Assembly: GCA_040217195.1 (NCBI GenBank)
Contig: JAVJNR010000004.1
Span: forward strand, 96,001 to 160,000
DNA length: 64,000 nt
Direction: 5' to 3'
Source of the DNA: Leptospiraceae bacterium
GTDB taxonomy: Bacteria > Spirochaetota > Leptospiria > Leptospirales > Leptonemataceae
In this document: positions 21,001-24,000 of the stretch, in pieces
Position numbering within the stretch: position 1 is the first letter of the stretch
Layout of the letters: each line of letters starts with the position of its first letter
Made by a program: the position numbers

Positions 21001-24000
21001 GGCCGGAGCAACCTTTGCGGCCAGAGTACATGATAAGGACATGAAAATGATGACCGATGTGTTCAAAGCTGCCTACGAACACAAAGGAACCTCATTCGTT
21101 GAAATCTATCAGAATTGCGTAATCTTTAACGATGGAGTTTTCGACGAGTCTGTATCCAAGGATACCCGGCAGGAACATACCATTTATCTGCAGGACAAGA
21201 AGCCCATGCTTTTTGGCCAGGAGCAGGACAAAGGTCTGTTGCTGGAAGGGTATCAGGCCAGGGTAGTTCCTTCAGAGGATGCCACGGATGCAGTAACCAT
21301 CCACGATGCATCCCGGGAAGACCCATCCTTCGCTTTCGCTCTGGCTCAACTTGATCGTCCCCACTTCCCGGTTCCCATGGGCATCCTTCGACAGGTTGAA
21401 AGACCTGTGTATGAGGAGCTGGTTCAGCATCAGGTTGATACAGTCGTGGACAAAAAAGGTAAGGGAGATCTGGAAGCCTTGATACATTCCGGAGATACCT
21501 GGGAAATTAAGAACTAACCTCGCCCTCCAGGGCCTCAAAGGCCCTGTTTTCCCATTTTTTTTATCTGTGGAGCCCCGCTCTCTGATTTTTTACTATGCAA
21601 GCAAAAGTTGCTTGCTTACTTGCACTGAAATTCGCGCATGCGAAATTCCATTTGGAGGGAGGTGAAATGGAAGATCCGCTCGGTGAACACTACATCATTG
21701 AACTATACGAGTGCAGTCATGAAGTACTGGATAATCTCGAACAGGTTCAAACAACCCTGCTGGATGCAGCAGATATATCGGGAGCTACGATCGTAGATCA
21801 AAGGTTCCACAAATTCAGTCCGCAGGGAGTTTCAGGAGTGGTGGTTATCGCCGAATCCCACCTGAGCATCCACACCTGGCCAGAGCTCGGCTATGCAGCT
21901 CTGGATCTATTTACTTGCAGTAAGGATATGGACATCCAGAAGGCACTGGATCTGCTCAAGCAGGTCTTTAAGCCAGGAGACATGGTCGTTGAATACATTC
22001 AGCGCGGTCTAATGGATCCAACCTATCGCAAGAATCAAAGACTACACCAATACAGGCAGGCCCTGGCGGCCGGTCGACAGTAAGGAGGGCAGACATGCTT
22101 GTTGCTACCAAGAAAGTACAATCTCATCTGTCCGATGCTGCCGAAATGCGGCAATCAGCGGTTTCTGGAAGTGGTGTGTTTGCCACAAGGTCCATCAAGA
22201 AAGATGAGCTTGTGGCCCTATGGGGTGGTACCATCTACCGAGAGGATCAACTGGAATCACTTCCTTCCGAGCTTCGTCATTACCTGTTGCAGGTAGACGA
22301 AACTCTATACATTGGCCCGTCCGACCTTGAGAATGTGGACGATTCAGAGTTCTTCAATCATTCCTGCGAACCCAATCTGGGCTTCAAAGGACAGGTGGCC
22401 CTGGTTGCCATGCGAGACATTGAAGCAGGCGAAGAGCTGACTTTCGACTATGCAATGGCCGAAACCTACGATCAGGAATTTTTCTGTGGTTGTGGTTCGG
22501 ATCTGTGTCGAGGTAACATTCGTGGAACGGACCCGCATCTGCCACAACTCCAGAAGCGGTATCAGGGATACTTCAGTTCATGGCTGGAGAAAAAACTGAA
22601 TGTAAAACCAGAAGACCTGGCAGGAAATCTTCAATTCGAAGAAACCGGAGCCTGGGGTCTGGTAACAGCTCTGGATTTGCACGATTGCGACGGAGACACG
22701 ATTCGTAGCCGGGAAAAGATCTACGAGTTCACTATTGAGCTATGCGATCGAATCCAGGTAAAAAGATTTGGTGAGCCTACAATTGTTCATTTTGGCGAAG
22801 ATGAGCGAGTGGCGGGTTACTCTCTGGTTCAGCTAATTGAAACATCTCTGGTAAGCGGTCACTTTGCCAATGCAACGAACCGAGTCTATCTGGATGTGTT
22901 CAGCTGTGCCTGGTACAATCCAACGGAAATTGTTAAGTTTGCGGCGGACTATTTTGGCGCTCGCGACTATAACGTAAATATCTATCTGCGTCACTGATTG
23001 CCCTGGCATATCGGAGACTTTTAATCGTGGGCCCTGTTCAGGGCCCTTTTCATTTTCGATCAGTTCTGTCTTTCATTCAAATTCTGCAATTCTAAGCCTA
23101 TTTTCGAATGTAGGCACCTTCAATGGCTTCAGCATTCATGGGACGACCAAATAGAAATCCCTGTCCTTCATTACAGCCTGAATCCACCAGATGCATTCTC
23201 TGGTCCTCGTTTTCGATTCCTTCCGCTATAACTGAAAAGCCCAGGTTCTTCCCCAGGGCAACAATCGCTGCTGAAATCGCCGACAGACTTGAGTCATCGG
23301 GTAATCCCTGAATAAAGGATCGGTCGATTTTCAGCCTGTCGACCGGCAAATCCCTTAAATAGCTTAGCGAAGAGTAGCCCACTCCAAAGTCATCAATGGC
23401 AATTCTTACTCCCTGACTGCGTAATAGATGCAGCTGTTCCAAAATCGAGGATTCCAGGCCAATCAATGAATTCTCGGTGATTTCAATCTCTAGCTTTTCC
23501 GGTGGCAGTCCAGTTTCCTTTAAGATTGCCATTACCCGGGAGGAAAAATCTCCGTTCTGAATCTGCACAGGCGAAGCGTTAACAGCAATGCAGTCGATGT
23601 GCATTCCCATGGACAACCAGGTCCGGGTTTGTCTGCAGGCCTCTTCCAGTACCCATTCTCCCAGCGGAATAATGAGGCCCAGTTGCTCGGCCACTGGAAT
23701 AAACTCATCTGGAGGAATCAGTGTATCTTCAGTTTTCCATCGAACCAGTGCTTCCAGTCCTAGAAGAGCGCCATTCACAAGATCTATTTGCGGTTGATAG
23801 TGCAAAATGAATTCATTGTGCTGCAATGCCTTTCGCAGTTCCGAACCCAGGTGAATTCTGCGCATTGCTTCATCGGTGAGATCCTGACTGAAGAATCTGT
23901 ATCGCATGGAGTCTTTTTTGGCACGATACATGGCAGTATCTGCCTGCTGAATCAATTCCTCAACGGTTGATCCATGATCCGGATACATGCTCATACCCAG

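Follow-up and report, generated by a model that had tools for sequence, protein, structure and literature searches.

What reaction is catalyzed by a protein that joins a SET domain to a relative of S-adenosylmethionine decarboxylase (AdoMetDC), and what does the SET half contribute? The question is raised by a gene of a Leptospiraceae bacterium located in the window analyzed here (64,000 nucleotides of contig JAVJNR010000004.1), directly behind an AdoMetDC gene. A first-pass annotation had interpreted its product as a two-headed enzyme, in which a pyruvoyl decarboxylase most likely makes putrescine from ornithine and the SET domain N-methylates it, and had extended this route to the whole order Leptospirales, pathogens included.

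Layout of the locus

In the window, korA and korB are followed by a gene encoding 138 aa and by an ORF encoding 300 aa (Table 1). The hairpin after korB is probably a terminator that parts the two-gene unit from these 2-oxoacid:ferredoxin oxidoreductase genes. The product of the first gene, whose start ATG at 21667 is preceded by GGAGG, scored 144.1 bits against TIGR03330 (cutoff, 75.65) and carries the E-S-H processing motif and the WPE proline. According to the accessible part of PMC10407285, this proline is conserved in AdoMetDC and not in arginine-decarboxylating forms. S64, H69, P72, and C84 were invariant across 19 neighbors. At the sequence level, the gene encodes a true class 1b AdoMetDC, as annotated in the first pass.

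Table 1. Features of the two-gene unit and its borders (positions in the window)
Feature	Position	Strand	Basis
Hairpin and T-run after korB	21529..21562	+	Read from sequence; absent from terminator-scan list
speD/speH, class 1b AdoMetDC, 138 aa	21667..22083	+	TIGR03330; E-S64-H and WPE motifs
Spacer of 11 nt with GGAGG ribosome-binding site for fusion gene	22084..22094	+	Sequence
N-terminal SET/post-SET domain and clade-specific C-terminal helices	22095..22610	+	Pfam SET, motif table, fold match
C-terminal SpeDC, predicted pyruvoyl L-ornithine decarboxylase domain	22635..22997	+	Diagnostic residues, homology
Intrinsic-terminator-like hairpin, end of two-gene unit	23029..23056	+	7-pair stem, T-rich tail; consensus match only

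The second gene is a single uninterrupted ORF (22095-22997, + strand, 300 aa) in which we again detected both Pfam domains above their cutoffs, SET at residues 25 to 119 (E 6.4e-17) and AdoMet_dc at residues 193 to 299 (E 1.5e-18). The fusion is not an artifact, because about 89 of the 156 Leptospirales genomes have it by hand count, namely, 26/42 in the family of this genome (one with an internal stop) and 63/114 in the other family. Upstream, speD was found in 49/49 fusion-bearing loci inspected (genomes not all distinct). An AlphaFold model built from a 27-row alignment (pLDDT 86.9, pTM 0.62) confirmed the resemblances proposed for each half, the C-terminal one matching Thermotoga maritima AdoMetDC 1vr7 (Z 16.5, rmsd 1.7, 111 residues aligned) and the N-terminal one matching the MLL1 SET domain (Z 13.3, rmsd 2.2, 125 residues aligned). 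A separate SET-only model (pLDDT 76.5) was poor near the active site and was set aside. Seven RNA runs contained small shares; the four examined gave short contigs, mostly from relatives, and none covered both genes.

The C-terminal domain and putrescine supply

The C-terminal domain is not a bona fide class 1b AdoMetDC, since it scored 17.6 bits against TIGR03330 (cutoff, 75.65) and lacks WPE. Its identity to the neighboring SpeD is as low as first reported (24% over 85 aligned residues). Li, Liang, Phillips, and Michael described SpeDC in 2023 (PMC10407285), in the part available to us, as one clade of pyruvoyl ornithine decarboxylases (ODCs) derived from AdoMetDC; its diagnostic residues are four, Gln, Thr, Phe, and Tyr, and it has at least 1,000 homologs, many of them in Spirochaetota. 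In the SpeDC domain of D. phosphitoxidans, the serine of IET-S is S229, and the S229A variant lost ODC activity (same source). The fusion reads QLIETS..HF..VYLD and contains all four diagnostic residues (Q246, T250, F257, and Y265), as mapped from the text and the Fig. S5 alignment of that paper rather than from its Fig. 8 logo. In Fig. S5, 64 of 114 residues (56%, hand count) are identical to the D. phosphitoxidans domain, and S251 aligns with S229 of this proven enzyme. S251, H256, and C271 are also the counterparts of T. maritima S63, H68, and C83 (processing Ser, His, and catalytic Cys). Because of the four diagnostic residues and the 56% identity to a domain proven as an ODC, we assign the C-terminal half by sequence to SpeDC, a known enzyme type with the same fold.

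A repeat search returned the same 865 homologs as before. Among the matches listed, we drew 84 two-domain fusions from the best 120 of 865, excluding partial, chimeric, SET-only, and SpeD-SpeDC rows, and found Q246, T250, S251, H256, F257, Y265, and C271 in 84/84, so that the invariance claimed for Ser251, His256, and Cys271 holds. The named Leptospira proteins, previously placed among the 49 best matches, instead rank 66 to 86, at 36 to 40% identity. Nor is the domain a lone divergent offshoot, as had been supposed: it has 4184 stand-alone relatives, up to 70 to 75% identical. Phage records gave no match to it.

Cleavage between T250 and S251 is predicted to yield a SET-bearing chain of 28.2 kDa and a chain of 5.8 kDa. 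The first-pass annotation regarded Thr-Ser self-processing as unproven; in the 56%-identical domain, a close homolog, it has been shown (PMC10407285, accessible part). Given this close homology, the C-terminal domain very probably decarboxylates L-ornithine to putrescine after Thr250-Ser251 cleavage. This portion of the earlier proposal is well supported, and all the readings considered below share it except the sulfonium route.

The genomic surroundings point in the same direction. As with the SpeDC genes described in the available part of PMC10407285, the fusion gene is a second speD homolog clustered with speD and speE. In Leptospira-type loci, speE directly follows the fusion, and a SpeE match lies right behind it in 21/22 genomes of genus g32 and in 24/24 of genus g34. 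In the present genome, SpeE is on another contig, and a second aminopropyltransferase is encoded. No agmatinase, agmatine deiminase, or pyruvoyl arginine decarboxylase (PvlArgDC) was found in this genome (94% complete), and its sole fold-III enzyme is LysA. It thus has the setting of SpeDC-type genomes, with a second, true speD, a speE, and no agmatine-to-putrescine route; a fold-I pyridoxal phosphate (PLP) decarboxylase is present, namely, a 500-aa Orn/Lys/Arg decarboxylase that its genus encodes in addition to the fusion. Within g32 and g34, no fold-I enzyme was found and most genomes have only one fold-III PLP decarboxylase. On these grounds, the product of their fusion gene, misannotated as "SAM decarboxylase", is the probable ODC.

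Genomes without the fusion are also informative. In g33, by inference the saprophytic Leptospira, 37/41 genomes lack the fusion and encode a long Orn/Lys/Arg decarboxylase of the fold-I PLP type, and 4/41 show the reverse. This mutual exclusion may reflect a single replacement event, as kin genomes are not independent, and it is not order-wide, since the genus studied here has both enzymes. The speD-fusion block was deleted at the syntenic site in 2/2 fusion-less genomes checked, and 5/5 had a SpeD that we take to be of class 1a from its motifs and length, in one case (G118) directly behind the PLP enzyme. Ten further fusion-less Leptospiraceae genomes contain an extra high-scoring fold-III enzyme, and in G149 such an enzyme coexists with SpeDC. 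The fusion is therefore replaced by SET-free isoenzymes, perhaps in few events. The speD/speE context and the exclusivity with PLP decarboxylases indicate that the core job of the fusion is most likely to supply putrescine for spermidine.

Outside the window, basal Leptospiraceae have a conserved RNA candidate with a three-way junction in the interval from speD to (SET-)speDC. With a model trained on 11 loci, one copy each was detected in 16/151 genomes, all before (SET-)speDC and six outside the training set; elsewhere in the phylum there was one weak match, and the present genome, g32, and g34 had no copy. Ninety-four percent of cells pair, and 4/18 pairs show two-sided changes in a model-fitted alignment of related sequences, so covariation is only suggestive of a structured RNA. 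The region has no significant Rfam match. In Leptospiraceae, small ORFs in the gap separating speD from the fusion were rejected as genes; they have no Pfam match and align only over short stretches, and a conserved RNA is thus the better explanation.

The SET domain within and outside Leptospirales

The SET domain of this protein has all the motifs of a competent methyltransferase, that is, GxG (G25xG27), NHxC (N88-H-S-C91, with N88, H89, and C91), the F/YDY tyrosine (F117-D-Y119), and the post-SET cysteines (C131/C133/C138). It is acidic, with a net charge of -10. We grouped the fusions by their SpeDC motif, not by SET, into IETSL (Leptonema-type, including Leptonema illini) and IETSC (Leptospira-type, including all named Leptospira). 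Among the matches listed, the Leptonema-type retained GxG in 40/52, NH in 44/52, the catalytic Tyr in 50/52, and the four Cys in 52/52, and the Leptospira-type retained them in 0/32, 0/32, 0/32, and 1/32, respectively; NH, Tyr, and post-SET Cys occurred together in 44/52 versus 0/32. The loss of post-SET Cys in Leptospira noted earlier is therefore correct, but incomplete, as GxG, NH, and Tyr have gone too. Stand-alone SET representatives kept NH in 76/76, Tyr in 69/76, and post-SET Cys in 74/76.

Mean pairwise identity was 0.43 to 0.49 for SET and 0.74 to 0.80 for SpeDC. The dN/dS ratio of the SET half was 0.03 to 0.09 in all five of seven sets with measurable dS (three Leptospira-type pairs, 0.057, 0.086, and 0.030; this genus, 0.042; one other genus, 0.061), the other two sets being saturated. 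The Leptospira-type SET has also gained conserved motifs of its own, RFSYL and an acidic DDGxD loop. It thus appears, from sequence, to be catalytically dead yet under purifying selection. In the present genus, the intact motifs and the dN/dS of 0.042 would fit a working methyltransferase just as well.

These data do not support a methyl-transfer pathway common to the order, and they exclude one that depends on methyl transfer in all its members, because the motifs are lost in the Leptospira-type fusions and because G149 and G153 retain SpeDC-speE without SET. The saprophytes, moreover, exchange the block for SET-free enzymes. Conversely, G041 (78% complete), in which no SpeDC was found, retains speD and an intact SET, so this domain is of value apart from the ODC. 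In the SpeDC tree, which is biased by stand-alone rows chosen as best matches to this protein, stand-alone proteins fell between the two fusion groups, with monophyly not rejected (p-AU 0.096), and the SET tree did not resolve one from two fusion events.

Gene neighborhoods of bacterial SET domains are reportedly treated in comparative-genomics reviews. We analyzed those of the stand-alone SET clade in the best 80 of 554 confirmed genome loci, 77 of which were counted, since three are Leptospirales fusions, and in the best 80 of 563 metagenome loci, many of them short. A polyamine neighbor, as defined by our queries, was present in 30/77 and 5/80, respectively. In 26/77 genome loci, nearly all from Chloroflexota, a YdcS/PotA/PotB/PotC-like ABC transporter lies just before SET; PotA passes TIGR01187, and the remaining subunits are best matches below cutoff. 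These 26 loci are essentially one Chloroflexota synteny block. Two other SETs among the best 80 of 554 follow speD-speE, either as a speD-speE fusion with a flavin amine oxidase behind the SET (L134) or as speD-speE-dehydrogenase-like genes (L156, Omnitrophota), and two precede a carboxynorspermidine-synthase-like gene, an arrangement seen in L152, L153, and L206. Among the best 80 of 563 metagenome loci, we found the ABC block in four and the dehydrogenase in one; scanned neighbors elsewhere were unrelated or unannotated. A biosynthetic polyamine gene was thus adjacent in 4 of ∼24 non-Chloroflexota genome loci (best 80 of 554), against ∼1 in 100 expected by chance on a rough estimate. Members of the clade often occur as tandem duplicates or as fusions with unrelated domains, no polyamine enzyme was found among the other fusion partners in 30 representatives scanned, and a protein atlas gave generic SET clusters alone. 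The link of the SET clade to polyamine genes is real but partial. Since the common neighbor is speD, speE, or a spermidine-level gene and not SpeDC, spermidine or decarboxylated SAM (dcSAM) would be a better candidate than putrescine for the SET ligand.

What survives of the original proposal is this recurrent link, together with motifs that by sequence are intact in the present genome. An active polyamine N-methyltransferase next to the ODC in the Leptonema-like lineage, acting on putrescine or more likely on spermidine and lost in Leptospiraceae, would account for the intact motifs, for stand-alone relatives flanking polyamine genes in four other lineages, and for an acidic SET with Trp or Phe at the position of the MLL1 channel Tyr. 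It would be analogous to BurB, a SET protein whose methylation of a free metabolite precedes a decarboxylase step (PMC12542666, accessible part). We nonetheless consider it unlikely, though the strongest competitor. Most loci of the clade have unrelated neighbors, the 26 ABC cases are a single syntenic lineage, the Asn is also gone in 8/52 Leptonema-type fusions among the matches listed, methylation of putrescine would compete with SpeE, and no report of such an activity was found in the literature searched. The reaction first proposed here is that of plant putrescine N-methyltransferase (PMC3725402). This enzyme has a spermidine-synthase fold, unrelated to SET.

The best sequence and fold matches of the domain are histone lysine methyltransferases (MLL1, Set1, ASH1L, and also SETD2), whose GxG, NHSC, FDY, and CxCx4C motifs it shares. 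Protein-lysine methylation by a fusion with ODC activity, with SpeD, SpeE, its own ODC domain, or a basic nucleoid protein as the target, would fit these matches (Z of 13.3 for MLL1 against 10.4 for BurB) and the presence of speD as the one neighbor common to Leptospirales, L134, L156, and the split case G041. In our judgment, this is improbable, as SETs in the PDB are mostly eukaryotic and rank is therefore weakly informative on substrate, and the SET of Leptospira-type fusions appears dead. The channel Tyr of SET domains orients the amine of the substrate, and this position is Trp, Phe, Arg, or Leu in the present clade. The fusion differs further from histone SETs in its clade-specific C-terminal helices, its metabolic-enzyme partner, and the loss of the motifs in Leptospira-type copies.

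SET action on a free small molecule has a precedent. BurB (PDB 9l4t) is a SET-domain methionine S-methyltransferase that uses free Met, held via main-chain atoms, according to the available part of PMC12542666; pocket residues therefore say little about a preference for Met. Like the fusion, it is a small bacterial SET protein whose pathway includes a decarboxylase; unlike it, BurB is stand-alone, S-methylates Met, and has a different decarboxylase partner. The two match at the level of fold rather than by shown orthology (Z 10.4, rmsd 3.8, 125 residues aligned, 32% identity), below several histone SETs. A BurB-like sulfonium route, in which SET would make S-methylmethionine and the pyruvoyl head would decarboxylate it to DMSP-amine, has this precedent, a product similar to the sulfonium substrate of AdoMetDC, and the amine oxidase behind SET in L134 in its favor. 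We give it very little credence: the C-terminal domain is a typical SpeDC, BurB is not specially close (profile match only over positions 82 to 141, fold rank 17), and the speE linkage and displacement pattern favor putrescine.

Frequent duplication and fusion of the clade elsewhere, mostly unrelated neighbors, and the loss or splitting off of SET in some genomes could also indicate a chance joining of neighbors, with SET doing an unrelated job or merely stabilizing the protein. A dead SET under purifying selection with new lineage-specific motifs, and a polyamine context that recurs elsewhere, make a mere passenger highly improbable.

Role of the fusion in polyamine synthesis

We favor, by a modest measure of confidence, a putrescine-making SpeDC whose SET domain plays an accessory part, in ligand binding or assembly, with catalysis optional. 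The speD and fusion genes would form a unit supplying both substrates of spermidine synthase, SpeD providing decarboxylated SAM and the SpeDC domain, once self-cleaved at Thr250-Ser251 to form its pyruvoyl group, converting L-ornithine to putrescine. The SET would derive from a widespread clade of stand-alone proteins whose link to polyamine genes is older, and it would remain on the 28-kDa chain after cleavage. Pathway flux would not require it; it may tune the decarboxylase noncatalytically, by binding polyamine or SAM/SAH/dcSAM, the ligand being speculative, or by aiding assembly. It may still methylate in the present genome and be a selected pseudo-enzyme in Leptospira. A conserved noncatalytic role is the simplest reading because it covers both the intact and the dead fusion groups. 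This accessory role and an active N-methyltransferase can both hold, successively in evolution. A bolder combination, which we hold to be possible but doubtful, is that the clade comprises the first SET-fold polyamine N-methyltransferases, fused to ODC in Leptospirales, active in marine and Leptonema-like lineages, and turned into a dead polyamine or SAM sensor that regulates the only recognizable putrescine source of pathogenic Leptospira, with a structured leader RNA in basal Leptospiraceae.

SpeDC is already known; what appears new is the SET-SpeDC fusion and the pseudo-SET. Neither was found in the literature searched, in which subscription coverage was thin, so their absence from print is not established. 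The accessible part of PMC10407285 describes stand-alone SpeDC and SpeD-SpeDC fusions only, without an N-terminal SET, and assays of no Leptospirales protein. The SpeD1-SpeDC double-pyruvoyl fusions of Desulfotignum and Omnitrophica likewise encode SpeD and ODC together with SpeDC C-terminal, whereas in this locus SpeD has its own gene and SET takes the N-terminal place. PMC10117894, as far as available, includes L. interrogans in its list of SET-bearing genomes, and the accessible parts of PMC3980110 and PMC3417536 contain no matching passage.

For most Leptospirales, the fusion likely fills the gap in the pathway at putrescine formation. It also offers a tractable handle on an old question, the purpose that SET domains serve in free-living bacteria, in one small soluble family whose members range from intact through partly decayed to dead but selected and also include split and SET-less forms. 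If SET indeed methylates or senses polyamines, this would add a chemistry or a regulatory mode that is new to bacterial polyamine synthesis.

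Start of speD and the speD-speDC intergenic region

Although the ORF finder opens speD at an upstream ATG (21595), the ribosome-binding site and homologues favor a start at 21667. The resulting leader holds two short inverted repeats. Between speD and (SET-)speDC, 16 of the 151 Leptospirales genomes carry a single copy of a conserved structured RNA candidate, comprising a hairpin and a three-way junction. This intergenic element had no match in Rfam and is possibly a polyamine- or SAM-related riboswitch or leader.

Variants and replacement of the fusion locus

In one relative (G004, loci L032/L053), a tblastn-based reading suggests an in-frame run of speD into the SET-SpeDC gene, possibly a triple fusion, but the ORF call gives two genes. 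In another (G040, L018), whose genome is 58% complete, the fusion gene is broken inside the SET domain, through either an assembly error or a natural split. In the presumed saprophytes lacking the fusion, the replacement cassette, as seen in G118, consists of a fold-I PLP decarboxylase and a class-1a-type speD.

Features inside and outside the window (L, locus; G, relative's genome; C, contig of the window's own genome)
Feature	Position	Source
speD leader, with two short inverted repeats	21595-21666	window
Structured RNA candidate	L239-L253, L035; e.g., L242:1501-1630	outside window
Fold-I PLP decarboxylase, then directly class-1a-type speD	L267:1228-3292	G118
SpeD-SpeE fusion, SET relative, flavin amine oxidase, GNAT; stops and starts overlap	L134:15-3976	unclassified bacterium
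YdcS/PotABC-like ABC transporter, SET relative, PMT-like membrane glycosyltransferase, CAAX protease, GNAT, ComEA	L085, L087, L141 and 23 more	Anaerolineae
O-antigen-ligase/GT2/ABC/FHA/SET/CDP-alcohol phosphatidyltransferase	L060, L063-L070	Leptospiraceae
Two more SET genes	L005:1027-1902; L006:1477-2115	own genome, C10
NNMT/PNMT/TEMT-family amine N-methyltransferase overlapping 500-aa fold-I PLP decarboxylase	L078:735-2952 = C1:491695-493909	own genome
Second, divergent aminopropyltransferase, score under SpeE cutoff	L002:1285-2238 = C1:244765-245715	own genome

Other SET and polyamine genes

Some stand-alone relatives of the fusion's SET domain lie beside polyamine genes. A separate, intact stand-alone SET gene occupies a conserved cluster in Leptospiraceae, and one of the two on C10 encodes a long Lys-rich, histone-H1-like N-terminal tail. 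In the window's organism, the NNMT/PNMT/TEMT-family gene and its overlapping decarboxylase are a candidate for a more conventional route to an N-methylated amine, and the divergent aminopropyltransferase may yield a longer or different polyamine.
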